A stretch of DNA of 32,000 bases from Okeania sp. (GCF_035285525.1 NZ_JAYKGW010000157.1:1-32000); one strand, 5' to 3'. Shown: positions 1,872 to 28,303, counted from the first letter of the stretch. Translations and numbers: made by a program. Notes: generated by a model from the sequence alone, not told the origin.

Positions 1872-2249
1872 GTGTAAATATTCCAGCGTACATTGCTATA
1901 ATTTAGGACTTATATCATGTCCGTTGGTATCGTTTGTGTAAAAATTGGAGAAATATCTAGGGTTTGCTGAAAAAGTCTGATGGTGAAGGTAGGGAGTAGG
2001 GACGTTGCATGCAAAGTCCGTACAGAATCAAGAGGAATCAAGAGTTTTAGAGAATGTACTTGTAAAAATTATCCCTTGCCAATTCTGCTCAAGTCTTACC
2101 CAGATACTGACTTTTTCAATCTTATCAAGCGAAAATCTGGTACTTTTTCACGATCTCAAAAGCCTAAAACCTTTACCAGTAAATGCCTTTATATTTAATC
2201 AGCAAGCCCTATCTACCTTTTTTAAGGTTTTTTTCTTCTCTTAAAGCTT

Positions 2250-2312
2250 CTTCCTTCTTCCTTCTTCCTTCTTCCTTCTTCCTTCTTCCTTCTTCCTTCT
2301 TCCTTCTTCCTT
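2250..2312. repeat. Heptamer tandem repeat (CTTCCTT) x9, STRR-like
   Basis: Nine perfect consecutive CTTCCTT units counted from 2250 to 2312. Confidence 0.95.
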
Positions 2313-2340
2313 ACCTTCTCTATACAAGACCGATGCTACC

Positions 2341-2446
2341 GGACATGATATTACGCAAAGAAACCCGGTTTCTACGATAAATCGTTGTTTTGAGTAGTAA
2401 TAATCTACCCTCGTACCGGGTTTCTGGGTTCAACTGCGTAAGTCCT
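2341..2446. mobile_element. MITE family A, opposite orientation to the 4140-4242 copy
   Basis: ...TTACGCAAAGAAACCCGGTTTCTACGATAAATCGTTGTTTTGAGTAGTAATAATCTACCCTCGTACCGGGTTTCTGGGTTCAACTGCGTAAGTCCT aligns with the reverse complement of 4140-4242. Confidence 0.75.
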
Positions 2447-2688
2447 GTAATTGTTAATTAGGGCTTGCGTATGGAAATGTAAAAACTTTGACAGATCGAG
2501 CTTTTAGCATTTTTAGGTATAGAAAAAGTACCTACTTTTCAGCTATTAATGCTGAAAAAGTTACCATTTTAGGCACATCCTTGGGCAAAAAAAATTACTT
2601 TCCTGCTCCTCTACTCCCCTACTCCCCTACTCAAGCGCTCCCCTACTCCTTAAAAAAGACTTTTTCAGCAATCCCTAATTATTCATTA

Positions 2689-3390
2689 TTAGTCCGATTT
2701 CATTCGTTGAGAAATAACCTTTGCAGGCACTCCCACTGCAATAGAATAAGGGGGAATATCCTTAGTTACCACTGCCCCTGCTCCTATCACGCTACCTTTA
2801 CCTATTCTGACACCATCAACTACTCTAACTCCACTACCCAGCCAACAGTCATCTTCAATCACAATACCTTGATAAGAACGGCCTTGTTCCTTAATCTTGC
2901 GATTTGGGTCTGAATATATATGATTATTTGCATATATTCCTGTGTGAGAAGCAATTAGACAATCATTACCTATCACAATATTACGTCCAGAAAGACAAGT
3001 GTAAGGACCTATATTGGTGCGATCGCCTATAACTATTAAACCCTCATCATGGACTCTAATATCTACTCCTCGTTCTAATCTACTTTTATTACCTATTTTA
3101 ATCCAGCTATTTAAACCATCTGCAGCTATATTAGCCCCAGAGCGAATATAAACCCCACTGCCTATTTCTATCCAATAGGTACGGTTAAATTCCACATTGT
3201 GTTGAATTTGAATATTACTTCCCCAGTTAGCAAAAATTAGACTATACATAGAGCTTCGTAATTTCATTCCCAATGATAAGGGTATGCCACCGATTGTAGC
3301 TAAAACTACACGATATAGATTAGTTAGTTTAGCCTGAGAGTCTTTCTTGACAAACTCATCAAATTTGTATTGATCTTGAGTAATAGTCAT
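2689..3390 (-). CDS. Left-handed beta-helix (hexapeptide-repeat) O-acetyltransferase, WbbJ/WcaF-like, possibly HpsU-like
   Basis: 233 aa. Hexapeptide repeats throughout: IGNDCLIASHTGIYANNH, GIVIEDDCWLGSGVRVVDGVRIGKGSVIGAGAVVTKDIPPYSIAVGVPAKVI. Hydrophobic N-terminal segment. Lies in a glycosyltransferase neighbourhood. Confidence 0.85.
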   Translation of the reverse strand: MTITQDQYKFDEFVKKDSQAKLTNLYRVVLATIGGIPLSLGMKLRSSMYSLIFANWGSNIQIQHNVEFNRTYWIEIGSGVYIRSGANIAADGLNSWIKIGNKSRLERGVDIRVHDEGLIVIGDRTNIGPYTCLSGRNIVIGNDCLIASHTGIYANNHIYSDPNRKIKEQGRSYQGIVIEDDCWLGSGVRVVDGVRIGKGSVIGAGAVVTKDIPPYSIAVGVPAKVISQRMKSD

Positions 3391-5716: not shown

Positions 5717-6508
5717 TTAGTATAAACCAAAATCTTTTCTAATTGATAATGTTATCGGACGATAATTGAATAAGACTTTTTTGATTTTAGGCAATAACCC
5801 TTTAGGATTAATTAAATTTTCTTTTCTTAATACATTTTCATTATGGCAAACAATATAAACACTACCAGGAAAAGGCAAAGGTGATATTGGTGTCTCTCGA
5901 TTAGCCAACAACTCCACTGCTTTGCTATGAGGAATATAGTACCTATTGTAGTAATCCAAATTATTAGATTCTAGAGTCTCAGGTAATGGATATAAGTCAC
6001 GTCTCAAAATAATTGATGTTCCACACCAACGATCAAAATTTTGCCTTTTAATATAGAGATATTTACTACCTTCTTTATATAAATAGCCTTTGTTGACAAA
6101 CCAACCATTATTTTGAGGACTTTGTTCAACCAACTGTGCTAGATGTTTGCTAACACAATCATCTGCATCGACAACCATTATATGAGTAAAACTATAATTT
6201 TCTTGAGCATATTTTATCCCAGTTAGTACCTTCCTAACCTTATCTGTTCGCTTTCTTATCAGTAAATTTACTTGATCTTGACTAGAAACTTGGGGAAATT
6301 CTACTCTCACATAATCAACATAAGGATGTATATATTGATTATTGGGCAATTCGTGACACACTACTACTACCCTAAAAGAATTAGAACTTTGATTACAAAC
6401 AGACTTAATAGTTCTTTCAAAAAGTCTAGATACAGTTTCCCATGACTTAGAAGTCTGCTGGCTCTTCAAAGGTATGACAAATAAAAGCATTTTTAAACTA
6501 TTACCCAC
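5717..6508 (-). CDS. Probable GT-A fold glycosyltransferase (GT2-like)
   Basis: 263 aa. Begins with a Rossmann-like strand (LLFVIPLKS...). DxD-type motif MVVDADDCV. Operon-like position among sugar-modifying genes. The start could instead be the Met at 6490 (MLLFVIPL). Confidence 0.55.
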   Translation of the reverse strand: MGNSLKMLLFVIPLKSQQTSKSWETVSRLFERTIKSVCNQSSNSFRVVVVCHELPNNQYIHPYVDYVRVEFPQVSSQDQVNLLIRKRTDKVRKVLTGIKYAQENYSFTHIMVVDADDCVSKHLAQLVEQSPQNNGWFVNKGYLYKEGSKYLYIKRQNFDRWCGTSIILRRDLYPLPETLESNNLDYYNRYYIPHSKAVELLANRETPISPLPFPGSVYIVCHNENVLRKENLINPKGLLPKIKKVLFNYRPITLSIRKDFGLY

Positions 6509-6541
6509 CTGAGAATTTGTAGTGACGACATTAACTTAATC

Positions 6542-6643
6542 AGAACTAAAGCCATGGGAACCCAGAAAACCGATACGAGCGTAGATGTTTATTGTCAAAA
6601 ACAATGATTTACCCTATAAACCGGGTTTCTTTGCATAAGTCCT
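6542..6643. mobile_element. MITE family A, diverged copy
   Basis: AGAACTAAAGCCATGGGAACCCAGAAAACCGATACGAGCG...TATAAACCGGGTTTCTTTGCATAAGTCCT. Lies between the GT-A gene and the phosphodiesterase-family gene. Confidence 0.75.
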
Positions 6644-6706
6644 GTTAATGTGTGAAATATAAATTATCACTTCAGAATAGCGATCGCTACTCCCAAAAGT
6701 CTACTA

Positions 6707-8368
6707 TTACATTAAAGAAGCAACAGATGTTTGTAATAATGACTTACCATCAAAACGACGAGAAATTGGGGCATCCATTAACTGAAGAATAGTAGGTGGA
6801 AGGTCAATAACATTACCTTCGGGCAAAATTGAACCGGGAGTAATACCATTACCTTGCACCATAACAAACCCTCTGGAACGATGACTACCTGTACGCCTGT
6901 AGGGAACAGGCCCAATACGTCCATACTTAGGACTATCAATAACATCAGTAGGTTTATCATCCCATTCTATCACCAAATCAGCACCTGGTAGTTTGGGATC
7001 CCTTTGTTGAGGAGATTGGCGCGTCCGCATCACTTTCTTCACAACTGACAACCCATTCCTGGGATTCTTCAAAGCATATAATTCCTCAGTTAATTCTTCA
7101 CACAAAGCATCATACTCTATGACAGAAACTATTCCTTGAGGTTCCCTACCTTCCAAGTTAATCCGAATATAGCCTTCAGAAAAACTTGGTAAAGCAAACG
7201 CTTTCATTTTTGGCCAGAAAGGTTTGTACCAACTGACAGGCTCCCAATAAAATGGGTCTGACTCTTTTTGCAACTGTTGAGCAGAAGCTAAATCAGGATT
7301 TTGAGCCACACCAAAAAACTTATCTATATAATCATGGAACTTACTGGGTGTATACTCCCTTAATAAACCTCTAATTGGGTTAGGATCGTACTTGCGTTGC
7401 CAAATTTCCCCCGCCCAAGTTTTGCGTTTTGTTTTTAATACAGGTGATGGCACAGGACCTCCAACTTTTCCAGGAGCAATCATTGCTTTACCAGGAAAAT
7501 TAAAGCGATAAAGAAACTCACCCAAAAGGAACATACTGGAAACATCAGTAGTATTGTTATCACTACCATGAACAGAAAACACCATGAAATAAGCATTTTC
7601 TGGAGCTGCTGCTAAGATTTCACCCACTGCATGATCTGTCGCTTCAAAAACTTCCAAAAGTGGGTCTTGGTCAAACAAGTTCTTTGGTCTATACTGATAT
7701 AAAGGATGATCAGGTTGACTGAGGAACCAAAAATCATGACCGGCTGAATGTGGTTCGCCAAATACTGTTAAAAATAAATCCCACTTCTCCTGGTGCAACA
7801 AGTCACGACATATATCAATACGCTTAGAAATACCTGCTTTTAGTGCCTCTCGCAGACGAGTTAAATAAGCTCCATCCCACCAATCACCATGATCTTTATG
7901 CAATGCTGGATGTTTGCCGTAACGATGATTAATTTCTGGCAGTATATTTGCAGGTAGAGAATGACTAGGAGTACCAGGAGAATGCGCACCCCAAGCTAAT
8001 ACCTGAATACCATTAACTTCTGGGGAAAGAGTAGATTTAGGCAAATCGAATGCACATACTCGATAATCATCTCCCAAAGCATAGAATGGAGCATAATCTC
8101 CAAAATCATAAGCACCAACATTTTCAACTTTGTATGTTCCCTCGTGAAACTTAATACCGCCCCAATATCCAGTATTCTGAGGCCGTGTACCTGCTATGAA
8201 AGTAGTCCAGGGAGTTTCTGCTTTGTAGTGGTCTAGACCTGTTAAGCGACCGTAAGCTCCCTGTTTTCGGAGTTTACTTAAATTCTTCAGATACCCTTGA
8301 GACATCCAAGATTCTAATAACTCTGGGTCTGCTGCATCTAATCCAATAGCAATAACAGGATTTTTCAT
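6707..8368 (-). CDS. Alkaline-phosphatase superfamily protein (type I phosphodiesterase / nucleotide pyrophosphatase-like)
   Basis: 553 aa. N-terminal metal-site strand VIAIGLDAADPELL. Candidate Thr nucleophile region ETPWTTFIAGT. His-rich blocks EPHSAGHDFW, VFSVHGSDNN and RRTGSHRSRGFVMVQG are typical of this fold. Confidence 0.8.
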   Translation of the reverse strand: MKNPVIAIGLDAADPELLESWMSQGYLKNLSKLRKQGAYGRLTGLDHYKAETPWTTFIAGTRPQNTGYWGGIKFHEGTYKVENVGAYDFGDYAPFYALGDDYRVCAFDLPKSTLSPEVNGIQVLAWGAHSPGTPSHSLPANILPEINHRYGKHPALHKDHGDWWDGAYLTRLREALKAGISKRIDICRDLLHQEKWDLFLTVFGEPHSAGHDFWFLSQPDHPLYQYRPKNLFDQDPLLEVFEATDHAVGEILAAAPENAYFMVFSVHGSDNNTTDVSSMFLLGEFLYRFNFPGKAMIAPGKVGGPVPSPVLKTKRKTWAGEIWQRKYDPNPIRGLLREYTPSKFHDYIDKFFGVAQNPDLASAQQLQKESDPFYWEPVSWYKPFWPKMKAFALPSFSEGYIRINLEGREPQGIVSVIEYDALCEELTEELYALKNPRNGLSVVKKVMRTRQSPQQRDPKLPGADLVIEWDDKPTDVIDSPKYGRIGPVPYRRTGSHRSRGFVMVQGNGITPGSILPEGNVIDLPPTILQLMDAPISRRFDGKSLLQTSVASLM

Positions 8369-8491: not shown

Positions 8492-9451
8492 TTAGCTAGT
8501 TTTATTTACAGCAATACTCTTCATAAACTGTTTTTTAATCAACTCAAAAGGACTGAGCATACTACTCAAGAAAAATTCTAGTTCACAGGCCGCTACTAAA
8601 TCAGTTTGAAGATTCTGTCTGTATTTATAAATGTGTAAGATAGCTCGGCGTAGACTTCCCATAACTATCTTAGTCATTACAATTGGCTTTTGCCAACTTT
8701 TGATATTAATCAAACGTAGTTCACAAATACAAAGACCTACAGTTCTAGATAAAGAAAGTAGATAATCTCTTTCTAATCTCCAGCTTGGTATTTTATGATC
8801 TAGGTGCATATCTGGATTATACCAAATTTCCCAGCCTCCCCTGTGTAAGTGGAGAGATATTTCAAAATCATTTCCTCCTCTTGTCGTTCTAACTAGGCGC
8901 TGAGGAACATTTTCTAACCAAGCCTTTTTCCTAACAACTAATCCTGCTCCTGGAGGTAAACTTAAATTTTCTGGATTGTATAAATGAGCTTTTGAACCCC
9001 GCTCTTTAATTGCTAAAAATGATTTAATTCTCCCAAAATTTTCAGGAGGTTCTACTTCAAAATCACCATGAATTTGACCGCCATAAGCTCCTGCTTTAGG
9101 ATATTCTTGAGCAAATTTATATGCCATAGATACCCAGTCTGGGGCTGGAAAAACATCGTCATCTATGAAACCGATTAATTCTCCTTTTGCTGCTTCGATA
9201 GCCTTCTGTCTAGCAAAAGCTAATCCTTGTTCGGCTTCAAAACAATATCTTAAATTATAAGACTGCGACCAATTTTTTTGGTAATCTTGAACTACTTTTG
9301 CTGTATTATCTTTGCTGTTATTATCAACAACCAGAATTTCCCAATCAAAATGTTCAGTGTTAATTTGCTCTCGCAATTTATCCAGAACTTTTGGTAAACG
9401 TTTTTCCCCATTATAGGTAGGGATCGCTACCGTGAACTTTATCTGTTTCAT
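8492..9451 (-). CDS. hpsE: Family-2 glycosyltransferase, HpsE-like (hormogonium polysaccharide type)
   Basis: 319 aa. FTVAIPTYNGEKRLPKVLDKLREQI...ILVVDNNSKDNTAKVV, then FIDDDVFPAPDW (DxD). The N-terminal region is a close paralog of the first ~330 aa of the next gene. The symbol is a family-level assignment only. Confidence 0.8.
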   Translation of the reverse strand: MKQIKFTVAIPTYNGEKRLPKVLDKLREQINTEHFDWEILVVDNNSKDNTAKVVQDYQKNWSQSYNLRYCFEAEQGLAFARQKAIEAAKGELIGFIDDDVFPAPDWVSMAYKFAQEYPKAGAYGGQIHGDFEVEPPENFGRIKSFLAIKERGSKAHLYNPENLSLPPGAGLVVRKKAWLENVPQRLVRTTRGGNDFEISLHLHRGGWEIWYNPDMHLDHKIPSWRLERDYLLSLSRTVGLCICELRLINIKSWQKPIVMTKIVMGSLRRAILHIYKYRQNLQTDLVAACELEFFLSSMLSPFELIKKQFMKSIAVNKTS

Positions 9452-9503
9452 AGAGACTTTTAAAGTTATTGTCGATCATAACTTATGTTGTATTTAAGGT
9501 CGG

Positions 9504-9646
9504 TATAGCAATCAGGAATCAGATGTGAGATTTTAGTCGTAACTAGGTAGGATTCAGGAGTTAGAAATCAGGAGTCAGAATGTAAAAAGATTTTGATTGA
9601 TCTTGATCATTCTTAAATATCTCATCAATCATTCCTGATTGCTATA
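9504..9646. mobile_element. MITE family C (16-bp perfect TIR TATAGCAATCAGGAAT ... ATTCCTGATTGCTATA)
   Basis: Perfect 16-bp terminal inverted repeats read directly. 143 bp, located between the two GT2 genes. Confidence 0.7.
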
Positions 9647-9887
9647 GACGAAAAAAATTACAAGTACGTCCGAAACGACTGGAACTGACTACAAGGAAGC
9701 AATAGATAAGGGTTGCAACTACTTTAACATTTCGTTACTGAAAAATAAAAGTATAAAACCTCTCCTTTTAAGGCGCAACTGCTTTTGGGAACACAACCTT
9801 CCAGGTTGTTACAGCCTGGAAGGCTGTGTTACAAATGTACCTCACAATCTTTAGGCATTGCTGTAATCAGCAAGCTCTATTTTAATT

Positions 9888-11714
9888 TTAGGTAAATCTC
9901 AAAGGTTTAGGAGAATCTATAGCATAGCCTTGAGCATAATGCAATCCTTGGGTAATAATATTATCCATTATCTTGCTGTTTTCAACCGCTTCCGCAATCG
10001 TTTTAATACCTAATTTATCACCCAGACTATGGATTTTTTCTATGCTGATGAGATTTCTACTGTTGTTAATAACTCCTTGAATTAATTTGCTATCAATTTT
10101 CAGATAATCTATAGGTAGTTGTTTGATATGCTCAGACATGGAGCTAAGATAGCCATCATTATCTGAGGTAAGATGACCAGCATTATCTAAGGTAAACTGA
10201 CAACCAATTTCTTTCAGCATCTTCATCAGTTTTGCTACTTTTTCTTTATTATAAATAGCAATACTTTCACTGATTCCTAAACTAATTATTTCTGGTGAAA
10301 TTTCATGCTTATCAAACTGCTGACGCAAGAAATCTACGAATGTTTCATCATTGACACTAGCAGCACTAATGTTAATCTCATACAAACATCTATTGTCTTG
10401 AACTTTAGCCCCAGAAAGTTGACTCAACAACTTCCAAATTACCCATTTATCAATGATTCCCATAAAATTGTAACGTTCAGCAGTAGGTATAAACTTTCCA
10501 GGTAATATAATCTTCCCTTTTCTGTCTTCTATTCGCAGCAGAATTTCTAAATGTCTTCTGTTTAAATCTTGGTTGCTAATAGGAGATATGCTTTGACCAT
10601 AAAGACAAAAGTTTTGTTCTTTAAAAGAAAAGTTTTGTTCTCCACAACAACAGTTTTGTTCTTCAATAGCTGTAGCAATAATCTCTAACCAATTTTCACT
10701 GCCATCAAGTCGTCGGTAACTTCTGGCTTGAGCTTGAGACTCTTGTTGTTTAGCCCACAGGAAAAAAGGACTTTTGATTGTATTCCACAAAAATTCTGTT
10801 TGGCAAGCTGTCACAGTATCAGTTTTGATTAACTTACCTTTTTTCATCCTGTGAAGTACCAATTGTCGCCAATCATTAGCCATGTATGCTGGAAAAGCTA
10901 AAGGTTTTTGCCAACTTTTGAGAGTCATCATTCTCATACGATTTCGACTCAAACCTACACAACGAACTACCTTGAGTAAGTAATCTTTTTTCAGTCGCCA
11001 ATTAGGAATTTTATGATGAACCACCATTGCTGGGTTGTACCAAATTTCCCAACCTGCTTGCTGAATATGTCTTAAAGCTTCTAAATCTTCACTAGCTAAT
11101 CCAGCCTCTTTATCAGTATGATTCAAAAATAATGTCTTGGGAACTGCTTTTTCCCAGGCTTGTTTACGAACTACTACTCCAGCACCAGGGGGTAACATCT
11201 TATTTTTAGGCTTGTATAAACTTGGTTTATTACCTCGATTTATAATTCCTAAAAAACAAGCTATCTCTTTAAAGTTTTCTGGCAATTCTGATTCTGAATT
11301 TTGTTCAAAAAAGTATCCATGAATCTGACTGCCAAAAGCACCAACTTGAGGATGATTTTTCCCAAAACTATAAGCTTGGGATACCCATTCAGGAGCAGGT
11401 AAATTGTCATCATCTAGGAAACCAATAAATTCTCCTCTGGCTTTTTCCACTGCTCTTTCTCTAGCAAATGCCGCTCCTTGCTTTGCTGCAAAAGCATATC
11501 TTAATGGAATTAATTTAGGCCAGTCAGTCTTTTGATGATTTGCATAATCTCCTACTACTTCCGCAGTTTTATCCGTGCTGTTATTATCAACTACGATTAC
11601 TTCCCATGAGAAGTTCTCGGTATCTATTTGTGATTTTAATTTGTCTAATACATCTGGTAGACGAGCTTCCCCATTGTAGGTAGGGATAGCAACTGTGAAA
11701 TCAACCCTGTTCAT
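9888..11714 (-). CDS. Fusion protein: HpsE-like GT2 glycosyltransferase (N-terminal) plus EAL domain (C-terminal, apparently degenerate)
   Basis: 608 aa. N-terminus: FTVAIPTYNGEARLPDVLDKLKSQI...VIVVDNNSTDKTAEVV, FLDDDNLPAPEW. C-terminus carries EAL-domain blocks: LEILLR, PGKFIPTAERYNFMGIIDKWV, EINIS, LGISES, FTLDNAG, YLKIDSKLI, IAEAVEN, AQGYAI. Confidence 0.85.
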   Translation of the reverse strand: MNRVDFTVAIPTYNGEARLPDVLDKLKSQIDTENFSWEVIVVDNNSTDKTAEVVGDYANHQKTDWPKLIPLRYAFAAKQGAAFARERAVEKARGEFIGFLDDDNLPAPEWVSQAYSFGKNHPQVGAFGSQIHGYFFEQNSESELPENFKEIACFLGIINRGNKPSLYKPKNKMLPPGAGVVVRKQAWEKAVPKTLFLNHTDKEAGLASEDLEALRHIQQAGWEIWYNPAMVVHHKIPNWRLKKDYLLKVVRCVGLSRNRMRMMTLKSWQKPLAFPAYMANDWRQLVLHRMKKGKLIKTDTVTACQTEFLWNTIKSPFFLWAKQQESQAQARSYRRLDGSENWLEIIATAIEEQNCCCGEQNFSFKEQNFCLYGQSISPISNQDLNRRHLEILLRIEDRKGKIILPGKFIPTAERYNFMGIIDKWVIWKLLSQLSGAKVQDNRCLYEINISAASVNDETFVDFLRQQFDKHEISPEIISLGISESIAIYNKEKVAKLMKMLKEIGCQFTLDNAGHLTSDNDGYLSSMSEHIKQLPIDYLKIDSKLIQGVINNSRNLISIEKIHSLGDKLGIKTIAEAVENSKIMDNIITQGLHYAQGYAIDSPKPLRFT

Positions 11715-18945: not shown

Positions 18946-20403
18946 CTAAATTTGAGGTTGATATTTGTACCAATCATTAGATTGTTCATAAACATGAGCA
19001 ACTTCAAATAATAAAGATTCTTTCAAAACATTACTAATAAATTGCATACCAATAGGTAAACCTTTTTCATCAAAACCACAAGGTAAACTCAAAGCAGGTA
19101 AACCAGCCAAATTAACTGGAATAGTCATTAAGTCAGACAAATACATATTCAGTGGATCGTTAGTTTTTTCACCCACCTTAAATGCTGTAGTTGGAGCAGT
19201 GGGGCACGCCAAAATATCTACTTGAGCAAAAGCCTTATCAAAATCTTCCTTAATTAAAGTTCTAACTTTTTGAGCTTTCAGATAATAAGCATCATAATAT
19301 CCAGCCGACAAAGCATAAGTACCAATCATAATTCGGCGCTTAACTTCTGAACCAAAACCTTCAGCACGAGTTTTCCCATACATACTTAAAAGGTTTTCTG
19401 AATCAGGAGTACGGAAACCATATTTAACCCCATCATAACGAGCTAAATTCGCCGAAGCTTCTGAGGGAGCAATAATATAATAAGTAGGTAAACCATATCT
19501 AAATCTAGGACAAGAAATTACCTGAATTTCTGCTCCTAACTCTTGCAGTAGTTCCACCGCTTTAGTGAAAGCTGCTAAAACAGATGAATCTAAACCTTCG
19601 CCAAAAGTCTCTTGAATTAGACCAATTCTCAGTTGTCCTCTAGGTCTTAAATTAGGTTTCAGATTTTTCCTGTAATCTGGTATTGGTACATTCAAACTGG
19701 TAGAATCCTTCGGGTCATAACCAGCGATCGCCTGCAATAAAATGGTCGAATCTTCGACAGTTCTACTAAAAGGACCGATTTGGTCCAGAGAAGAAGCATA
19801 AGCCACTAACCCATAGCGAGAGACCAAGCCATAAGTAGGCTTCATTCCTACCACTCCACAAAAAGATGCTGGTTGACGAATGGACCCACCTGTATCTGAA
19901 CCTAATGCTACTATAGATTCTTGAGATGCCACTGCTGCTGCCGATCCTCCGGAAGAACCTCCAGGTACTCGTTCTACATCCCAAGGATTAGCCGTAATTT
20001 GATAGGCCGAATTTTCTGTAGAACTGCCCATCGCAAATTCATCCAAATTAGTTTTACCTAAAATTACTGCTCCAGCATCCACAAGTTTTTGAGTCACCGT
20101 AGATTCATAAGGGGGAATAAAATTTTCGAGAATTTTAGAACCACAAGTAGTCGGGATACCTCTAGTACACATATTATCTTTAATGGCAATCGGAATCCCT
20201 GCCAGTTGTCCAATTTTTTCTCCTGCTGCAATTTTGGCATCCACCAGACGAGCTTGAGTAATGGCCTGATCTGCGGTAACACAGATAAAGCTTTTTAACT
20301 TTGGCTCTAACTGGTTGATGCGTTCCAGAGCTTCTTGAGTAATTTCTACAGCAGAGCGTTCTTTGCTGATTAGTTGTTTATGCAGCTCGCTAATGGATGC
20401 CAT
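18946..20403 (-). CDS. gatA: Asp-tRNA(Asn)/Glu-tRNA(Gln) amidotransferase subunit A
   Basis: 485 aa. Amidase signature [12 protein letters not shown]...[25 protein letters not shown]. Typical GatA N-terminus ([24 protein letters not shown]) and end-to-end colinearity with GatA. Confidence 0.97.
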
Positions 20404-20851
20404 GCTTATACCGTTATTCCTACAAATTAAAATTTAAAATATTTATGATTATTTTGAGATTCTCGCTGTTAATTATAACAGGAGATTCTTTGGTGGGAGT
20501 GAATTTGCGCAACTGGGAATCACTAGAGAAAAGAATTTATTAGTCTACCCGCATTAACACAAGCTGAATTTTAGCACAAACCTTGTAGATATTTAACGTA
20601 AAAAGTTGATATAGCAATTCTTAATATTTGTGACAAAATTTTTAGACTTGGTATGGAGGGAACAGGGAATAGAAAGACCAAATAAAATTATACCTCACAA
20701 GCTTAAGAAACGCTACAAATATTAAGTTTTAAGTTGAAATTAGATAATTTTACTGATGATAATTTTTTAAATTCAAACTTATATTTTATCCGGAATATGG
20801 TACAGATAGGCTGAGAAACTATGAAGTTCCCACGATTTCTTAGTAAGAGCT

Positions 20852-21307
20852 ATGCCACCAAAAGCTCGTTTGAAAAACTATCTGACTACAGAAGAATTGA
20901 AAATTCGCTATCGACAAGCTCCAGATACCATCGAATCCCGTCGATGGCATCTCCTGCTTTTAATTGCTCAACAATGGTCTATTAAAAAGGCAGCTCAAGT
21001 TATTGGGCTTAATTATGATTATGCCAAGGAAATTGTTGGACGTTATAACCGAGAAGGACCGGAGTCTGTGAAAAATCGTAGCAAGGATCGTCAACCACCT
21101 CCTGCTAAATCTTTATTGACTTTTGCTCAACAGCAGGAACTATTAATGGCTTTACAAGGGCCTGCTCCTGATGGTGGGACTTGGTCTGGTCCAAAAGTAG
21201 CTCGTTGGATAGCTGATAAAACTGGTCGGGATCATGTCTGGCCTCAACGAGGTTGGGATTATCTAAAAAGGTTGGGTATTGACTGGAAGAAAAAAGATCA
21301 CAAGTAA
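20852..21307 (+). pseudogene. Orphan IS630-family orfA-like HTH ORF with no DDE partner downstream
   Basis: 151 aa. HTH region SIKKAAQVIGLNYDYAKEIVGRYNREG and second winged-helix region WSGPKVARWIADKTGRDHVWPQRGWDYLKRLGIDWKKK. Ends next to an A6G run (21290-21296) like the IS630 frameshift site. Downstream DNA is non-coding repeats. Confidence 0.6.
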
Positions 21308-21741
21308 GTATTTCCTCTGGAATGCTTACAATAACAAAGACAACAATAACTGATAATTATTAACCTAGTTTTGGAACCTAAAATTATTAATAAAAACTAT
21401 ATATAAATGATTTAATTGGCAATGTATTTTGTAAGCATTTAGTCTTCAGCTATTTAGGCTTTTCTGAATAAATATAAAAGCTTTTAGATATAAAGTTTTG
21501 AGGATTTTTAGGTAGGTCAAAAGTGCAAATTCTGAGGTTGGGAAAGCACGGTTCCCGAAAAATCCTAAATTTAGGATTTTCCCCTAACTATGGCAGAAAA
21601 TAAAGGGATAATTTTTATGATTATATCCTCTATAAATCTTGATTCTTTTTGATTCTGTAGAGACCTTGGGTAAAGGTTTCCCTACCTACTTCCTACTACC
21701 TCTCTCAATCAAAAGACTTTTTCAGTAATACCTATGTATTT

Positions 21742-21905
21742 GAGTTTGATAAAAAAGCTTTATTGGTTGAAGTAAATTCAATTTTACTATCAAAGAAGAC
21801 TTTAAAGGTTATTTTCATTGAAAGCTATTTTCAAGTTTAGATTAGGATTTGCTGTTGGCGCGACATTCCGCAAAAATAGCCGACAGTTAATAGCTGAATG
21901 CTTAC
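21742..21905 (-). repeat. Dispersed repeat family D, about 165 bp with a GTAAGCAT terminus; inverted relative to the copies at 26058 and 26262
   Basis: The reverse complement (GTAAGCATTCAGCTATTAACTGTCGG...GCGGAATGTCGCGCCAACAGCAAATCCTAATCTAAA...AATAACCTTTAAAGTCTTCTTTGATAGTAAAATTGAATTTAC...AAGCTTTTTTATCAAACTC) aligns with 26262-26527 once the nested MITE there is removed. Confidence 0.75.
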
Positions 21906-22486
21906 TGTATTTTTTTTAAAATATTTTGTAATTATTCAGTCGTCAACTATGAGTTATTAGCTTTATTAACTATGATTTAAATTCAAGATTAGCTTTTTTT
22001 TATTCAATTATCTACTTGAAAATATGTAAGGATTCATCCTTCAGCTATTAGCTATCAACTATTTGTAATTCACTCATTATTCCACTAGAGGAGCATTATC
22101 CATAAAGGAATATTCATGGTTATTTTGGTACAGTATTCCGTAGGAAATGAAATTGGTAATAAAACCTAACCTTAGTCATTACTTCCCACATTCAAAAGCT
22201 GATAGCTGAATGCTTATGAAAATATAGTAGAACACAAGAATGAATCGACCAAGAGAAAATTAACTTGAGTATTTCAAGCCTCTGGCTTAAGTAAGAGGTA
22301 ATGATAACTGATAACTGAAATGACAGATTATGGCTAAATGCTTAACATTAAATCAAATACTTTTCCGGAATCATAGTAAAAATATTGAGAAATTAGATGA
22401 AGGTTTTATTAACCATAATTATTCATGAATTATCAATTATTAATTTAGTAAAACCTGAAATAAAAATATCTCAATATTTAGTAGCT

Positions 22487-23182
22487 ATGAAAATCAATAT
22501 TTGCACAAAAATCATCCTAGCATTTGCCTTATGTTTTGGGATTAATTTAACTCTCAATAATTCCGCTTTTGCTAGACCAAAGCCTCAATTAATTTGTGAA
22601 TTAAAACCGCAATTATGTCAAGAAAACCAAGAAACTGTGTGTAAAGAAAATGAAAGTTGCCATCAAAAAGCACTAGAAAGTTGCCAGCAACATAATCCAA
22701 ATTCCTGCGAAAAAACACAGTCTGTAGTTGAAGAAATTCGACCTGAAATTCGACCTAATAAATTTTATTGTGAACAAGGTAAAAATGGTATTCCAACTAC
22801 TTTTGTTAAAACACCACAAGGTACTTATCCAGTCATTCGTTGGGTTTCTAATTATTTCTTATCTGCTGGATATACTCCCATGACTCGTTGTCGTCAAGTA
22901 TCAAATAAATTTCAATTATTCTATGATGATGAGAGACTAAATTACATTACGACTGGCATTGTTAATCGTCAACCAGTTGTTTGTGTTTCTAGTAAAAATG
23001 GTGGTCCTTGTCAAGGAGTATTATTTACTCTTAAACCACAACAAAATGCTAGTCAAACAATTCAAAAATTATTTGATATTCGAGTTGGTGCTTCTACAGG
23101 TCCCCTGTATGAAAGTAGTTCCCGTTTCTATTTAAACTTCAATGATTATTTAAAGAGTTTAGCAAACCAGAGAATGGAGTAA
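22487..23182 (+). CDS. COP23-domain (circadian oscillating protein 23 family) secreted protein with an extra Cys-rich N-terminal region
   Basis: Signal-peptide-like start MKINICTKIILAFALCFGINLTLNNSAFA at ATG 22487; the ORF track starts earlier at 22397. COP23-like core: FYCEQGKNGIPTTFVKTPQGTYPVIRWVSNYFLSAGYTPMTRCRQVSNKFQ...GIVNRQPVVCVSSKNGGPCQGVLFTLKP. Confidence 0.75.
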   Translation: MKINICTKIILAFALCFGINLTLNNSAFARPKPQLICELKPQLCQENQETVCKENESCHQKALESCQQHNPNSCEKTQSVVEEIRPEIRPNKFYCEQGKNGIPTTFVKTPQGTYPVIRWVSNYFLSAGYTPMTRCRQVSNKFQLFYDDERLNYITTGIVNRQPVVCVSSKNGGPCQGVLFTLKPQQNASQTIQKLFDIRVGASTGPLYESSSRFYLNFNDYLKSLANQRME

Positions 23183-23185
23183 TAT

Positions 23186-24124
23186 TTGGTGAGTCTGCGA
23201 TCGCTAATTTTAGCAACTTATATTAATAGTGGTTTATTTTTTTTGCCTATACAAATGTTGCCTCAAAAGTTTTCTGAGTTGGAAAGTTTGGCAACTCAAA
23301 TCCCAATTCAAAATTGTGTTGAATGTAATAATTTTTGCACGATTAAAGAACTTAAAAGTATAGCTAAATCTATCACTGTTAAGATTATTTCGGAAACTGG
23401 TTGGGGGTCAGGAATTATTTTGAAACAGGAGGGAGAAGTTTATACAGTTATTACGAATCAGCACGTTTTAAATACTAATAATAACTCTTATCTTATTCAG
23501 ACTCCAGATGGTATTTTTTATCAGGCAAATAAAATAGAAAATGAAAATTTTCAAGGAAATGATTTGGCTTTATTAGAATTTCGCAGCACTCACTCAATTT
23601 ATGCTGTTGCTTCTCTGGAAAATTCTACTACTCTTTCTCTAGGAGATAAAACTTTTGCTGCTGGTTTTCCTACTTTGGAAAAATCTGAAGACACAGAATT
23701 TTTATTGACTAGAGGAAGAGTTTCAATTTTGTCTAAGCAACCTTTAGAAAAGGGTTATCAAGTTGGCTACACTAATGTTGTTAAAAAGGGTATGAGTGGG
23801 GGTCCTTTACTGAATATTTACGGACAAGTAGTTGGTATTAATGGAATGCACGCTTATCCTTTATGGGGAAATCCTTATGTATATCGTGATGGTTCTGAAC
23901 CAACTTTAACTTTGCGTCAAAAAATGAGTCATTTAGCATTTGCTATTCCTATGGAAACTGTGGCTAAGTTGGCTCCAAATTTTGCATCTATATCGACTAT
24001 TAAATTTGATGAAACTGTTAGTATTAAATTTTTAAATTATTTGTTTTTTGATGATTTTGGTGAATTACTGAACTGGCAGTTTTATCCATATATTTTGTCT
24101 ACTTCGTGTCATGGAAATAGTTGA
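23186..24124 (+). CDS. Trypsin-like (S1 family) serine protease
   Basis: 312 aa. Catalytic triad contexts: TVITNQHVL (His), NDLALLEF (Asp), KKGMSGGPLLNIYGQVVGING (Ser). Hydrophobic N-terminus. Starts 3 nt after the COP23 stop codon. Start codon is uncertain (TTG 23186, GTG 23189 or an internal ATG). Confidence 0.8.
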   Translation: MVSLRSLILATYINSGLFFLPIQMLPQKFSELESLATQIPIQNCVECNNFCTIKELKSIAKSITVKIISETGWGSGIILKQEGEVYTVITNQHVLNTNNNSYLIQTPDGIFYQANKIENENFQGNDLALLEFRSTHSIYAVASLENSTTLSLGDKTFAAGFPTLEKSEDTEFLLTRGRVSILSKQPLEKGYQVGYTNVVKKGMSGGPLLNIYGQVVGINGMHAYPLWGNPYVYRDGSEPTLTLRQKMSHLAFAIPMETVAKLAPNFASISTIKFDETVSIKFLNYLFFDDFGELLNWQFYPYILSTSCHGNS

Positions 24125-24247
24125 ATAATTAATAATTACCTCTTCTTATTTAATAAGTAGAAACTTTTATGGCGCTATAGGCAACATAATTTCTGACTTT
24201 CCTCTAGAGATAAATTTAGTAAGCAGAAATTTTTATTATAAAAAAAT

Positions 24248-25774
24248 ATGAAATTTAAGAATTTTTTACGGAGCTTCGTCAAATTTTTACTCCCTATTAA
24301 ACCCTTACTTATAACTTCTTCTTTATTACTAATTCCTGCTACAACAATTGTTTTCAAACAACCTGTTGCTTTAGCCTTAATGGCAGATCAAATAAAGGAA
24401 ATTTCTACAGAATTTACAGTATTAATTGATGCTATAAATCCCGCTTCCGGAATAATTATTTCTCATAAAAAAGATACTTATTATGTTTTAACTGCAAAGC
24501 ACGTTGTCGAAACTCAAGATGAATATGCAATTATTACTAAAGATGGAGAAAGATACGAAATTGACTATCAAAGAATCATTAAATTACCAAGAGTTGATTT
24601 AGCAATTTTAGAATTTCGGAGTAATAAAAAATATCAAATTGCTACTTTAGCTAAATATGATTATCAAGCAGAATTTCGTCATGTTTTTGTCTCTGGTTGG
24701 CCTGAGTCGAGATTACCTTTTGCAGAAAGAGAACATTTATTTAGTCCTGGTTTATTAATTAATGAAGATTATGAATTAGCCTTTATTAAAGATCCGGTTT
24801 CTAATGGTTATGAACTTTTTTATAACAATATTACGGAGTTAGGTTTAAGTGGCGCACCTGTTTTAGATACTCAAGGAAGAGTAATTGGAATTCATGGTGC
24901 TTCTGAAGGTACAAAAATTTATGATGAAGAATCTAATTCAGTAGCAAGAGTAAATATTGGTTTTAGTTATGGCATTCCCATTAATACTTTTTTAGAATCA
25001 GTAAATAAGTTAAATATTGGGTTAAATTTTCAACTAGAAAATTCACCCCCACCACCACTAACTAGAAAAGAAGTTTTTTCTATAGAAGCTTATTTAAAAG
25101 TTCCAGAAACAACAGATATTTCTAGTGCAGCAGCATGGGCAAATCGCGGGAATCATTTATATAGATTAGAAAGATTTGCCGAAGCATTAGTAGCTTTTGA
25201 ACGTTCCATAAAAATCAGGGAAAATTTTTATCCAGCTTGGTATGGAAAGGCAAATGTTTTATCTGCTTTAGGTAGATATAATGCAGCAATAGATGCTTAT
25301 AAAAAGACAGTAAAAATTAAACCAGATTTCTATTTAGCTTGGCGAGACCAAGGAGCTTTATTTGCTTATTTAGATCGACCTCATGAAGCATTAATATCTT
25401 TTCATCGAGTAATTACATATAAGCCAGATGATTTTGCAGTTTGGTATCTGAAAGGGAATGTTTTAGCAGCCAATTTGCAGAAATATGAAGAAGCGATCGC
25501 TGCCTATAATAAGGCAATTCAATTAAAGTCTGATTTTGCGGATGCTTGGATAGGAAAAGGGGAAGCTTTTTATCGTTTAGGAAATTATGAAAAAGCTAGA
25601 GAAGCTGTTCAAGAGGCAGTGAGACTTAAGCCTAACGATCAAGAAATATCAAATTTTTTAAATTCTTTGAATAAAGATAATTTGCCACAACATTCTGTAG
25701 AGTTAATACCAAATCAAAGAGAAGTTGAAAGAAGAAGTTATCCTCCTCGTAAACAACCTAATTTATTGTGGTAA
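24248..25774 (+). CDS. Trypsin-like serine protease fused to C-terminal TPR repeats
   Basis: 508 aa. Signal/anchor LLPIKPLLITSSLLLIPATTIVF. Triad contexts YVLTAKHVV, VDLAILEF, ELGLSGAPVLDTQGRVIGIHG. About 5-6 TPR units follow (AWANRGNHLYRLERFAEALVAFERSIKI..., AWYGKANVL..., AWRDQGALF..., VWYLKGNVL..., AWIGKGEAFYRLGNYEKA...). Confidence 0.85.
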   Translation: MKFKNFLRSFVKFLLPIKPLLITSSLLLIPATTIVFKQPVALALMADQIKEISTEFTVLIDAINPASGIIISHKKDTYYVLTAKHVVETQDEYAIITKDGERYEIDYQRIIKLPRVDLAILEFRSNKKYQIATLAKYDYQAEFRHVFVSGWPESRLPFAEREHLFSPGLLINEDYELAFIKDPVSNGYELFYNNITELGLSGAPVLDTQGRVIGIHGASEGTKIYDEESNSVARVNIGFSYGIPINTFLESVNKLNIGLNFQLENSPPPPLTRKEVFSIEAYLKVPETTDISSAAAWANRGNHLYRLERFAEALVAFERSIKIRENFYPAWYGKANVLSALGRYNAAIDAYKKTVKIKPDFYLAWRDQGALFAYLDRPHEALISFHRVITYKPDDFAVWYLKGNVLAANLQKYEEAIAAYNKAIQLKSDFADAWIGKGEAFYRLGNYEKAREAVQEAVRLKPNDQEISNFLNSLNKDNLPQHSVELIPNQREVERRSYPPRKQPNLLW

Positions 25775-26057
25775 TAAAGTAAGCATTTAGCAGTTAGTTA
25801 GCCTCCTACTGAGGCGGAATTCAGATATTGTTTTTGGTTTGAGATTTAGACCTCTCCTTGAAAACTATATTTTATCAACATATCTCTTGAAATAGAATTT
25901 TATAATGGATAGCTTTAAAGGCAGGATATTATTACTGACAGCTAATAGCTAAATGCTTAGTTAGTAAATATAGCATTCAACCTTTACCAAAGATTTATAG
26001 TAATTTTCAATTTTATGTAATAAAATAAAAACTAGGATAGCTCAAAGGAAAAATAGC

Positions 26058-26237
26058 GTAAGCATCCAGCTATTAGCCGTCAGCAAATCCTATCTAAGAT
26101 ATAAAAATGGCTTGAAATGAATATAACCTTTAAGGTCGCTTTTGATAGTAAGATTCAATTTACCTCAACAAAGCCAAGCTTTTATCTCAAAATAAAATAA
26201 ATAGCTGACTGCTAAATGCTGAGTGCTGAATGCTTAC
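26058..26237 (+). repeat. Dispersed repeat/MITE family D copy, bounded by GTAAGCAT ... ATGCTTAC
   Basis: GTAAGCATCCAGCTATTAGCC...AATATAACCTTTAAGGTCGCTTTTGATAGTAAGATTCAATTTACCTCAACAAAGCCAAGCTTTTATCTCAAA...GCTGAATGCTTAC. Confidence 0.75.
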
Positions 26238-26261
26238 AAAATAGCAGACTGCACTATCAGG

Positions 26262-26574
26262 GTAAGCATTTCCTGGGAGCTATTAGTCGTTATCTCTTCC
26301 TGCGGAATGCTGCGCAAACAGTAAACCCTATCTAAATCTTAAAAATGACTTTAAATAAATTAGAACTTACGCACCAGACGCTATATGTGGCTTCCAAAAC
26401 TATTGCGCAATCGTTTTTGAACTCTATAGATAGTACCTTTGCGTAAGTCCTGTGAATATAACCTTTAAAGTCGGTTTTGATAGTAACATTCAATTTACCT
26501 CAACAAAGCCAAGCTTTTATCTCAAACTAAAATAAATAGCTGACTGCTGACTGCTGACGATGCAGAATGCTTAC
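26262..26574 (+). repeat. Dispersed repeat/MITE family D copy carrying a nested MITE
   Basis: Same sequence family as 26058-26237, including a near-identical ~95-bp block at 26455-26548. Interrupted at 26362-26451 by an element with AGAACTTACGCA...TGCGTAAGTCCT ends. Confidence 0.75.
26362..26451. mobile_element. MITE with family-A-type termini (90 bp) nested in a family-D repeat
   Basis: AGAACTTACGCACCAGACGCTATATGTGG...ACCTTTGCGTAAGTCCT. The 12-bp termini are near-perfect inverted repeats. The copy at 26058-26237 lacks this insert. Confidence 0.75.
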
Positions 26575-26821
26575 TTATCAGATAAGATAAAAAAATATTG
26601 TTCAGATCTAATTGTAAGCAGTCAGCCATCAGTCATCAGCTTTATTAACTTTAAAAGAGGAAAAAGAAATCAGCTAGATTTCCGAGAATTATAGAGTATG
26701 GTTTATTAATGAATAATGGATGATTACGTCATTTATTAAAAAGGTGATATTAATTAAAAAGCTTAGAGCTAACGGCTAATAGCTGGATACTTGCAGACAA
26801 TTAGGGAAATAGTGATTAAGT

Positions 26822-28303
26822 ATGTTATTTAACTCTTATGTTTTTATATTTGGTTTTTTACCTTTAACTTTGATTATATTTTTTGCTTTAACTAAGTTTC
26901 GCTTAATTAAAGCAGCTAAGGTTTGGTTGACTGCTAGTTCTTTCGCTTTTTATGGTTATTGGAATGTTGCCTATGTTCCTCTACTGATAATTTCAATTTT
27001 ATGGAATTATCAAATGGGTAAATTTATTGCTGAAGCTAAACCAGAAAGTAAGAAAGTAAATGTTTTACTTTGGTTAGGTATAGCTGTAAATTTAGTAATA
27101 ATTTCCTATTATAAATATGCCAACTTTTTCTTAGATAGTTTTAATTCAGTAGTTTCTACAAATTTCAATGCTGGGGAAATTATTTTACCTCTGGCAATTT
27201 CTTTTTATACTTTTACTCAAATAGCTTATTTAGTAGATGCTTATCGTGGAGAAACTAGAGAAACTAATTATGATTTACTCACTTATAGTTTATTTGTAGT
27301 TTTCTTCCCTCAATTAATCGCCGGACCTATTTTACGTCACGATGAACTTATTCCGCAATTTCGTCAATTGCGTAATTATGTTTTTTCCCAGAAAAATATG
27401 GCTTTGGGTTTGAGTCTTTTTAGTTTAGGATTGTGTAAAAAAGTATTGATAGCTGATACTATATCACCTTGGGTAACACTAGCATTTAATAATACTTCTG
27501 ATTTGAGTTTTATTGAAGCCTGGGTAGGGGCTTTAAGTTACACTTTTCAACTATATTTTGATTTTTCTGGTTACTCAGATATGGCAATAGGTTTAGGGTT
27601 AATGTTTAATATTAAATTACCCATTAATTTTAACTCTCCCTACAAAGCTACTTCTATTAGTGATTTTTGGCGACGCTGGCATATTACTTTATCAAATTTT
27701 CTGAGAGATTATCTATATATTTCCCTGGGTGGAAGTCGTCGCGGAGAAGTTCGTCGTTATACTAATCTTTTAACAACAATGCTATTAGGTGGATTATGGC
27801 ATGGTGCTGGTTGGACTTATGTAATTTGGGGAGGTTTACATGGTATCTATTTATGTATTAATCATGGTTGGCGAAAGTTAAATATTCCGATGCCAAAATT
27901 ATTAGCATGGGCAATTACTTTTATTTCTGTTATTATTAGTTGGGTGTTATTTCGAGCCGAAAATATTCAAGATGGTTTAGATATTTTACAAACAATGACC
28001 GGTTTTAATGGAATAGCTATACCAGGAGAAGCTAAAGGGAAATTATCTATATTAACTAATTTTGGTTTTCAGGTTAAATCTTGGTCGGAATTAACTTATT
28101 TGCCAGAACTTTGGGGTAGTAAAACTTTCTCAATATTGACTTTAATAGCTTTAACTTTTTCTGTAAGTTTTCTACCAAATACTCAGGAAATTTTAGCAAA
28201 GCTAAAACCTACTTGGTGGTGGGCAGCTTGGATTGGTATTTTGACAAGTTTAGCTTTATTATCACTGAACCGTGTGTCTGAGTTTCTTTATTTCCAATTT
28301 TAA
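26822..28303 (+). CDS. MBOAT-family membrane-bound O-acyltransferase (AlgI/DltB-like)
   Basis: 493 aa, polytopic. Conserved blocks DFWRRWHITLSNFLRDYLYISLGGSRRG and LGGLWHGAGWTYVIWGGLHG (catalytic His region). Confidence 0.92.
   Translation: MLFNSYVFIFGFLPLTLIIFFALTKFRLIKAAKVWLTASSFAFYGYWNVAYVPLLIISILWNYQMGKFIAEAKPESKKVNVLLWLGIAVNLVIISYYKYANFFLDSFNSVVSTNFNAGEIILPLAISFYTFTQIAYLVDAYRGETRETNYDLLTYSLFVVFFPQLIAGPILRHDELIPQFRQLRNYVFSQKNMALGLSLFSLGLCKKVLIADTISPWVTLAFNNTSDLSFIEAWVGALSYTFQLYFDFSGYSDMAIGLGLMFNIKLPINFNSPYKATSISDFWRRWHITLSNFLRDYLYISLGGSRRGEVRRYTNLLTTMLLGGLWHGAGWTYVIWGGLHGIYLCINHGWRKLNIPMPKLLAWAITFISVIISWVLFRAENIQDGLDILQTMTGFNGIAIPGEAKGKLSILTNFGFQVKSWSELTYLPELWGSKTFSILTLIALTFSVSFLPNTQEILAKLKPTWWWAAWIGILTSLALLSLNRVSEFLYFQF

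Follow-up and report, generated by a model that had tools for sequence, protein, structure and literature searches.

A gene for a COP23-domain protein and two exported HtrA-like serine proteases form a conserved module in Okeania and other cyanobacteria

Introduction

A COP23-domain protein and two trypsin-like proteases are encoded side by side in a 32,000-nt stretch of DNA from Okeania sp. (GCF_035285525.1, NZ_JAYKGW010000157.1:1-32000), and the question raised by this locus is whether the proteases are dedicated to COP23 and, if so, what they do to it. The whole stretch is referred to here as the window, coordinates are counted from its first letter, and the proteases are called P1 and P2 in gene order. 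A reading made from the sequence alone had proposed that the proteases process or mature COP23, or act with it in a periplasmic regulatory cascade. The data presented below indicate that the COP23-protease association is real, ancient and specific, and lead to the proposal, made with moderate confidence, that P1 and P2 constitute a dedicated protease, acting outside the cytoplasm, by which COP23 is cleaved or turned over.

COP23 was discovered thirty years ago; its function is unexplained, and no partner has been named for it. Published passages describe COP23 as an isolated output of the clock or a protein tied to nitrogen fixation. In Synechococcus/Cyanothece RF-1 both its synthesis and its degradation are reported to be rhythmic, the degradation depending on light as well as Ca2+ (10.64898/2026.04.23.720389). 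In UCYN-A, the nitroplast lineage, COP23 ranks with the genes of highest expression and strongest day-night regulation, and in the diazoplasts or spheroid bodies of diatoms it is among the top-expressed genes or the most ammonium-regulated proteins. Circadian oscillation of transcript and protein, together with a membrane location, is known from the literature for RF-1, UCYN-A and relatives only. Anabaena COP23 responds to nitrogen step-down; the Anabaena homolog Alr2313 is present in the exoproteome (PMC4390845), and alr2313 is down in a sigG mutant (PMC4390870). Within the passages of the literature that were searchable no link between COP23 and a protease was found, those on cyanobacterial COP23 being silent on protease neighbours, and proteases are not mentioned in the Epithemia preprint. 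The link appears to be undescribed in the searchable literature.

Conserved linkage of COP23 and protease genes

The three same-strand open reading frames (ORFs) proposed for 22487-25774 were verified in the window:

22487..23182, + strand, COP23-domain protein, 231 aa (Pfam PF14218, E 1.5e-44)
23186..24124, + strand, P1, exported PDZ-less HtrA-like serine protease, 312 aa (Trypsin_2, E 3e-20)
24248..25774, + strand, P2, exported paralogous serine protease with five tetratricopeptide (TPR) units, 508 aa (Trypsin_2, E 1.1e-14, and TPR families)

The tight packing taken at first as a mark of the unit holds for the window, where 3 nt separate the COP23 stop from the P1 start, but not for close relatives, in which the two gaps grow to 0.3-2.5 kb, that between COP23 and P1 reaching approximately 1 kb and that between P1 and P2 approximately 2.5 kb. 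Across all loci the gaps among module genes run from overlap to more than 2 kb.

Absence of the association from other genomes had been set beforehand as a refuting outcome; a protease of this family was found to adjoin 52 of 53 evaluable COP23 genes, spread over many cyanobacterial orders. This sample comprised 36 loci from a genome scan, seven from look-ups and ten plasmid paralogs. The genome scan used a COP23 alignment alone, with no condition on neighbours, against GTDB with one genome per species, and returned 38 loci which were examined by tblastn and ORF mapping; 36 had enough downstream sequence to be evaluated. An adjacent protease, downstream and on the same strand, was present at 35 of these 36. 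The module was observed in Okeania, Dapis, Trichodesmium, Symploca, Caldora, Coleofasciculaceae, Geitlerinema, Zarconia, Leptolyngbya, Xenococcaceae, Oscillatoria, Spirulina, Calothrix and several metagenome-assembled genomes (MAGs), the sole exception being the complete genome of Leptothermofonsia ETS-13 (L031), which carries COP23 without an adjacent protease. Six context look-ups starting from other COP23 proteins yielded seven COP23 genes, all protease-flanked. Similarly, plasmid-borne COP23 paralogs found by tblastn in a plasmid collection all had an adjoining protease (10/10; 28-45% identity), a count that includes one 'hypothetical protein' of Calothrix PCC 7716 and, in Nostoc sphaeroides, a module spanning the plasmid origin.

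The association held reciprocally as well. COP23 lay immediately upstream of each of six P1-like proteases, which came from Kamptonema, Planktothrix, Limnospira, Laspinema and two MAGs, and when a protease-family hidden Markov model was run on all ORFs of 58 loci (698 kb) no member was detected more than 4 kb from a COP23 gene. Within the sample the proteases were never encountered without COP23. Other neighbours change between lineages: the module is flanked by gatA and a helix-turn-helix (HTH) gene in Oscillatoriales, Nostocales have leuA and a von Willebrand type D (VWD) protein there, and plasmid copies lie among mobile and toxin-antitoxin genes, indicating that the conserved unit is the module and not a larger syntenic block. 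That part of the sequence-only reading which held the pair to be dedicated to COP23, and not a chance neighbour, is therefore supported; the linkage would fit COP23 either as substrate or as regulator.

Microcystis, Planktothrix and Limnospira/Arthrospira are genera not known to fix nitrogen. COP23 modules were found in Microcystis (L046), Planktothrix (L056) and Limnospira (L057), and the genes are also present in Arthrospira (PMC13114239), which contradicts the restriction of COP23 to nitrogen-fixing cyanobacteria that is repeatedly stated in the UCYN-A literature. In published RNA-seq data from Arthrospira platensis, RS07465 (COP23), RS07460 and RS07455 (both serine proteases) are consecutive loci among 21 differentially expressed genes, with log2 fold changes of -1.97, -2.08 and -2.10, respectively; the passages available from that paper do not mention the adjacency of COP23 and the two proteases (PMC13114239). 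These data are independent evidence of co-regulation of the module in a relative, and back the proposed tie between COP23 and the proteases.

The two proteases

All three proteins had been assigned hydrophobic N-termini, and this was borne out by Kyte-Doolittle maxima of 2.4 (COP23), 1.6 (P1) and 2.0 (P2). The signal sequences are conserved, with AxA-type cleavage sites visible in orthologs and clear in many P2 orthologs. The P1 start used here is a TTG codon 3 nt past the COP23 stop, with an alternative GTG at 23189, whereas one public gene call begins at the ATG at 23255 and gives a product of 289 aa (P0126). The longer form is preferred because the hydrophobic N-terminus is kept in orthologs that start with ATG (MNWRSLIL...). 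The domains of the two proteases are as follows:

P1 residues ~50-270, + strand, protease domain (AF2 pLDDT >90)
P2 residues ~48-285, 24389-25102, + strand, protease domain (Trypsin_2)
P2 residues 295-464, 25130-25639, + strand, TPR region of five 34-residue units in register, followed by a 44-aa tail ending NLLW

The His, Asp and Ser contexts quoted in the sequence-only reading were correct and correspond to H93/D126/S204 in P1 and H85/D117/S201 in P2. The triad is unchanged in 18/18 P1-like and 23/23 P2-like sequences, so that neither protein is expected to be a pseudo-protease. Both exceed the Trypsin_2 (PF13365) cut-off of 27.6 bits (P1 73.8, P2 55.8), and their paralogy is evident from approximately 31-33% identity across some 175 residues (E 1e-17 to 1e-19). 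The C-terminal 30 aa of P1 are disordered. When the AF2 model of P1 was searched with Foldseek, the protease domains of DegP, DegQ and DegS were the best matches (E ~1e-13), with target-normalised TM values of up to 0.8 against PDZ-deleted DegS and DegQ structures. By sequence (phmmer against PDB) the nearest solved relatives of P1 are likewise DegP, DegQ, DegS and HhoA (best E 1.7e-11), and P2 is more distant. No Pfam match to a PDZ domain was obtained in either protein, and scores lie far under the curated cut-offs both for the Do family (TIGR02037: P1 72.8 and P2 37 bits, cut-off 416) and for HhoA_HhoB_HtrA (NF041521: P1 50.5 and P2 19.3 bits, cut-off 450). P1 and P2 are therefore HtrA-like, not HtrA proper. 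The TPR region of P2, for which five to six units had been estimated, contains exactly five, matching TPR_1 (E 1.8e-33, in four stretches) and TPR_2 (E 4.9e-29).

Within the P1 clade an invariant motif, H-A-Y-P-L-W-G-x-P-Y-x-x-x-D-G, follows the catalytic Ser (residues 222-236, window 23849-23893). To our knowledge it is not a recognised feature of HtrA proteases. The motif is acidic and Gly-rich; to connect it with the Ca2+ dependence reported for the breakdown of COP23 would be sheer speculation. At their C-termini 22 of 120 P1-family proteins end in Trp, mostly as LLW or PLW, which the window P1 does not, and the P2 proteins from Okeania, Trichodesmium and Dapis have N/F/D-LLW as their last residues (LLW at window 25763-25771). 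A C-terminal Trp is a distinguishing mark of module proteins and may be a docking or sorting tag.

The COP23 protein

The window COP23 matches PF14218 over profile positions 1-138 of 138 with 151.6 bits against a cut-off of 27. Its parts are:

residues ~1-29, 22487 to 22573, + strand, signal peptide (hydrophobic N-terminus with AFA site)
residues 30-91, 22574-22759, + strand, Cys-rich tandem-repeat linker (8-residue repeat)
residues 92-223, 22760-23155, + strand, COP23 domain (PF14218)
residues 199-210, 23081-23116, + strand, conserved loop ...GASTGPLYESSS (alignment; AF2 pLDDT <50)

The window COP23 shows 100% identity with an NCBI protein from Okeania sp. The NCBI product is 261 aa long and starts at 22397 (P0001), its extra 30 residues preceding the signal peptide. 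The start at 22487 fits better because the ortholog alignment begins at MKIN and because the upstream extension (22397-22486) contains a 1-nt frame-breaking indel in a Trichodesmium relative (L010); on this comparison the annotated start is likely wrong. A lipoprotein signal was considered and rejected, as the signal-peptide Cys is unconserved and Leu occupies position -1.

Alignments of 21 and of 50 homologs were used to define the invariant residues of the domain, which in the larger set include C95, C135, C166, C175, W119 and R134 among others. The loop at 199-210 holds the family-invariant P206, L207, E209 and S210 (GPLYES). In the AF2 model pLDDT exceeds 90 for residues 90-190, is 55-65 in the linker and falls below 50 in this loop, which the model suggests is probably exposed. 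A Foldseek search of the COP23 model against PDB returned nothing at E <=0.001, the best match having E 0.46 and TM <0.2.

The Cys-rich stretch that had been described as an N-terminal addition is present. It is confined to Okeania, Trichodesmium and Dapis and so is not a family feature, and the Cys spacing first given was wrong in two places, x8 standing for x7 (the actual pattern being C-x6-C-x7-C-x5-C-x7-C-x7-C). This stretch is an 8-residue tandem repeat encoded as a 24-nt direct repeat at 22643-22690; its length varies, and in some Okeania part of it is missing. Variability, partial deletion in close relatives, construction from repeats and low model confidence led to rejection of a metal-binding or otherwise structured domain; to judge from the alignments, it is a lineage-specific linker joining signal peptide and COP23 domain.

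An exhaustive profile search placed 1907 representatives in the COP23 family at 50% clustering. Of 265 family proteins 125 end in Trp and 30 more in Phe, giving an aromatic C-terminus in 58%. Multi-domain forms comprise COP23-CHAT, COP23-COP23-TPR-Trypsin_2, Fasciclin-COP23 and tandem COP23 proteins (P0279, P0263, P0119/P0265/P0308/P0319 and P0246-P0248).

Architecture of related modules

By profile score every protease domain falls in either the P1 or the P2 clade, and loci with both always show P1 before P2. Clades and order are kept even in distant plasmid paralog modules, indicating that the P1/P2 duplication is old. Composition varies around this order: some modules have P2-TPR alone, some (in certain Okeania) P1 alone, others P1 and P2 without TPR, and in others P1, P2 and TPR are fused. 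The TPR part that figured in the sequence-only reading is thus not a constant of the module, being absent from Nostocales-type, Xenococcaceae and other loci. Single P1-P2-TPR polypeptides were found in at least four lineages, in Oscillatoria PMC 1068.18 (L033, 930 aa), on Stanieria plasmids (L045/L053, 1067 aa), on an Aulosira plasmid (L050, 881 aa) and on an ENA contig (L061, 785 aa). These fusions follow gene order, which argues that P1 and P2 work as one enzyme. COP23 itself is fused to proteases of two kinds: a metagenomic protein present on two contigs (P0263) consists of signal peptide-COP23-COP23-TPR-Trypsin_2 with its triad intact, and in P0279 COP23 is joined to CHAT, a caspase-like protease.

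Other genes were observed beside modules of particular lineages. Hanks-type Ser/Thr kinases adjoin COP23-protease modules, mostly plasmid or paralog copies, at L042, L046, L048, L051 and L060, with another close by at L045. In those of L042, L046, L048 and L051 a transmembrane-like segment at approximately residues 295-332 is followed by a C-terminal extracytoplasmic tail or TPR region, and several of the module-adjacent kinases are 38-51% identical to one another. On the Cylindrospermopsis curvispora plasmid (L051) two GUN4-annotated proteins that also have P2-like protease domains, and so are protease-GUN4 fusions, are encoded at 2104-3207 and 6341-7630 beside COP23-P1. A VWD-domain protein of approximately 755 aa follows P1 and P2 (without TPR) on the same strand at L039 (Cylindrospermum, 9267-11534) and L040 (8554-10836).

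Sequences flanking the module

Two further elements lie upstream of the COP23 gene:

20852..21307, + strand, HTH protein, 151 aa, cytoplasmic (Pfam HTH_23/28/29/32/33)
22355..22486, + strand, conserved block of ~130 nt before the COP23 start (blastn, 75-81% identity, 12 relatives)

The HTH protein resembles the N-terminal DNA-binding domain of IS630 transposases and has no transposase catalytic part. Its gene precedes COP23 (with 62-76% identity) in Okeania, Trichodesmium, Dapis, Coleofasciculaceae, Zarconia, Leptothermofonsia, Kamptonema, Planktothrix and Limnospira (recorded at L001-L031, L055-L057 and L059), is usually divergent from gatA and is absent from Nostocales-type loci. It adjoins COP23 even in the protease-less Leptothermofonsia, and at the same loci its product is more conserved than COP23. 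From these patterns the HTH protein is a candidate domesticated regulator of the module, to which we infer that it belongs.

The remainder of the 1.18-kb spacer before COP23 is unconserved across Okeania, Dapis and Trichodesmium. The conserved block contains the palindrome TTCCGGAA at 22363-22370 and an invariant ACTTTTCCGGA block; it is duplicated in L003, and CTT-rich repeats take the place of its distal half in L011 and L016. Judged by its position and conservation it probably represents the promoter and 5' untranslated region of the COP23 gene. Rfam gave no match to it or anywhere else in the window. An NtcA site (GTA-N8-TAC), reported for a diazoplast COP23 gene, was rejected as a candidate, since the five matches in the window equal chance expectation and none is near the module.

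A repeat of approximately 120 nt occurs three times in the window, at 21732-21854 (inverted), 26081-26200 and 26453-26574, only in non-coding DNA flanking the cluster. The spacers that hold it are also rich in short AGCTGA(A/T)TGCTTA-type repeats, and in a Trichodesmium MAG (L010) a related copy of the 120-nt repeat occupies another position. This element is more suggestive of a small mobile or dispersed repeat than of a module component.

Discussion

The reading preferred here is that COP23 is the client of its own proteases. A Sec-exported COP23 and an anciently duplicated PDZ-less HtrA-type pair would make up one conserved cyanobacterial module, with P1 and P2 acting jointly as a hetero-oligomeric protease located in the cell envelope or periplasm. 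COP23 itself would be the client to which they are dedicated, cleaved for processing or for scheduled removal, and the pair would then account, as an extracytoplasmic protease hitherto lacking, for the rhythmic degradation that has been reported. Docking might occur via flexible parts of COP23, namely the linker, the GPLYES loop or, in many other lineages, the tail ending in Trp or Phe, and the P2 TPR domain could serve as a peptide-binding recruitment module sited where HtrA proteins carry PDZ. TPR domains are classic C-terminal-peptide binders. By analogy with DegS and other HtrA proteases, which bind peptides with aromatic C-termini and are activated by them, the aromatic C-terminus of the COP23 family would fit a docking tail; this is a lead only, as the window COP23 has no such tail and P2 itself ends NLLW.

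Several observations favour COP23 as client. It is very abundant in several systems, which fits a client better than a regulatory subunit, and the founding member is reported to undergo regulated degradation. Cytoplasmic proteases such as Clp, FtsH and Lon cannot reach exported proteins, so that oscillation of an exported COP23 would need an external protease. In addition, COP23 occurs without an adjacent protease (L031), but the proteases were never seen without COP23 in the sample.

A number of points weigh against this reading. The degradation rhythm is known second-hand, from the discussion of a preprint (10.64898/2026.04.23.720389), and it is tied to the present module by family membership only. 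The aromatic C-terminal tail typical of the family is missing from the very COP23 under study. Scans for sigma-70 promoters and intrinsic terminators over 20400-26900 gave fewer matches than shuffled sequence and delimited no operon. Pairwise COP23 identity correlates with that of the neighbouring proteases (Spearman 0.85 for P1 and 0.63 for P2; Mantel p 0.001), which fits co-inheritance as a unit but is partly expected from shared species phylogeny. Physical interaction, cellular location and the role of COP23 as substrate rather than regulator are matters that we infer, the association of P1 with P2 being read from the fusions only. Finally, the fusion of COP23 to two mechanistically unrelated types of protease, serine S1 and CHAT, would be explained no less well by a domain with a regulatory or targeting function than by a substrate, and the invariant, presumably exposed loop could be an inhibitor-type reactive loop and not a cleavage site.

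These last two points belong to the strongest alternative, a possible but less probable one, in which COP23 is an inhibitor of P1/P2, an allosteric activator, an adaptor bringing other envelope proteins to them or an anchor holding them to membrane or cell wall, and the true substrates lie elsewhere. The occurrence of COP23 in P0263 and P0279 follows a pattern typical of regulatory or sensor domains, the GPLYES loop with its pLDDT below 50 is a possible reactive-site loop, and Fasciclin-COP23 fusions suggest a surface-binding role. That the proteases were never found without COP23 in the sample, and that COP23 comes first in gene order, would also be expected of a regulator. However, the COP23 model has no fold likeness to any PDB structure, including the solved serine protease inhibitors searched with Foldseek, although COP23 may have a new inhibitor fold. 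The very high expression of COP23 in reduced endosymbiont genomes would be unusual for a specialised protease subunit, the Leptothermofonsia gene has no adjacent protease to regulate, and the reported regulated degradation is more simply explained if COP23 is the client.

A wider view, which at present seems rather unlikely, would make the COP23 module a self-contained extracytoplasmic timing or signalling device, its cleavage state being read in paralogous modules by receptor-type Ser/Thr kinases. Synthesis under clock or nitrogen control, combined with a heteromeric protease of its own, would let the level of COP23 oscillate outside the cytoplasm; if true, COP23 would be the founder of a family of protease-coupled envelope signals reaching into the nitroplast and the diazoplast. 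Slightly less probable again, and to be counted as unlikely, is the related explanation that cleavage by P1/P2 releases or destroys a ligand sensed by membrane-spanning Hanks-type Ser/Thr kinases, which would carry information such as the state of the envelope or the time of day into the cell. Proteins of the form kinase-transmembrane segment-periplasmic tail or TPR do lie beside the modules of L042, L046, L048, L051 and L060, several of them 38-51% identical mutually, and the decrease of alr2313 in the sigG mutant (PMC4390870) is in keeping with a signalling role. No kinase, however, is next to the module in the 32-kb window or at most chromosomal loci, some chance adjacency is expected given the number of Ser/Thr kinases in filamentous cyanobacteria, and the released peptide is a supposition.

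General quality control of the HtrA type, with the adjacency reflecting only co-regulation or historical accident, is very improbable. The HtrA-like protease domains, recognised in both sequence and fold, and intergenic gaps that vary from overlap to more than 2 kb are what this explanation has in its favour, but the adjacency survives across orders and plasmids as other neighbours change, is reciprocal and extends to COP23-protease fusions, and the absence of PDZ and scores far under the housekeeping HtrA cut-offs leave the explanation close to refuted. An anti-phage or conflict system with trypsin-like effector proteases can scarcely be credited. In its favour, P1/P2 give PADLOC matches, though weak and of generic protease-domain level (RT-Protease_XI E 1.8e-15, LmuA E 1e-10), and plasmid paralog modules have toxin-antitoxin genes and WD40, TPR and CHAT-type proteins as neighbours. 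Against it, COP23 and the HTH protein match no PADLOC model; export signals are present on each protein of the module, but the effectors matched in PADLOC are cytoplasmic; the chromosomal copy stands in synteny beside gatA and is inherited vertically; and COP23 is highly expressed and diel- and nitrogen-regulated.

With COP23 taken as client, P1 and P2 become the first concrete candidate enzymes for cutting or controlling COP23, including its rhythmic degradation. The module thereby supplies the first testable handles on a protein so far without a partner: a candidate recognition loop and tail, and a candidate regulator in the HTH gene.

Comparison with known systems

The nearest counterpart of the client is RF-1 COP23. 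The window protein shares with it a full-length COP23 domain and belongs to the same exported or membrane-associated cyanobacterial family; it differs in adding the Cys-rich repeat linker and in lacking the aromatic C-terminal tail.

For the proteases the closest known systems are HtrA, DegP, DegQ and DegS (MEROPS S1C) and the cyanobacterial HhoA, HhoB and HtrA, with which P1 and P2 share the chymotrypsin-fold domain, the His-Asp-Ser triad and export. Unlike these, P1 and P2 have no PDZ domain, P2 has TPR in the PDZ position, P1 has its own HAYPLWG.PY...DG motif, and the two form a fixed pair tied to the COP23 gene. Dedication to a single substrate has a precedent in this family, DegS being an HtrA protease that serves RseA alone and is switched on by aromatic C-terminal peptides. 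Joint action of two paralogous HtrA-type proteases is known from plant Deg5/Deg8 of the thylakoid lumen, of which Deg5 also lacks a PDZ domain, and from magnetosome MamE/MamO.

Combination of HtrA-like proteins with a TPR protein is found in the magnetosome proteins MamE/MamO and MamA. The P2 TPR region matches the MamA model with E 5.9e-19, its 68.3 bits standing against an equivalog cut-off of 200, and P1/P2 reach 28.1 bits with MamE and 26.4 bits with MamO against a cut-off of 800, so that there is no equivalog match. In contrast to MamO, both P1 and P2 retain full triads, and the locus has no magnetosome or thylakoid context. The partnership of P1 and P2 also differs from those of Deg5/Deg8 and MamE/MamO in being drawn from gene order and fusions. 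Set beside these systems, P1 and P2 would represent a new PDZ-less paired branch of HtrA-type proteases, in some members of which TPR replaces PDZ.

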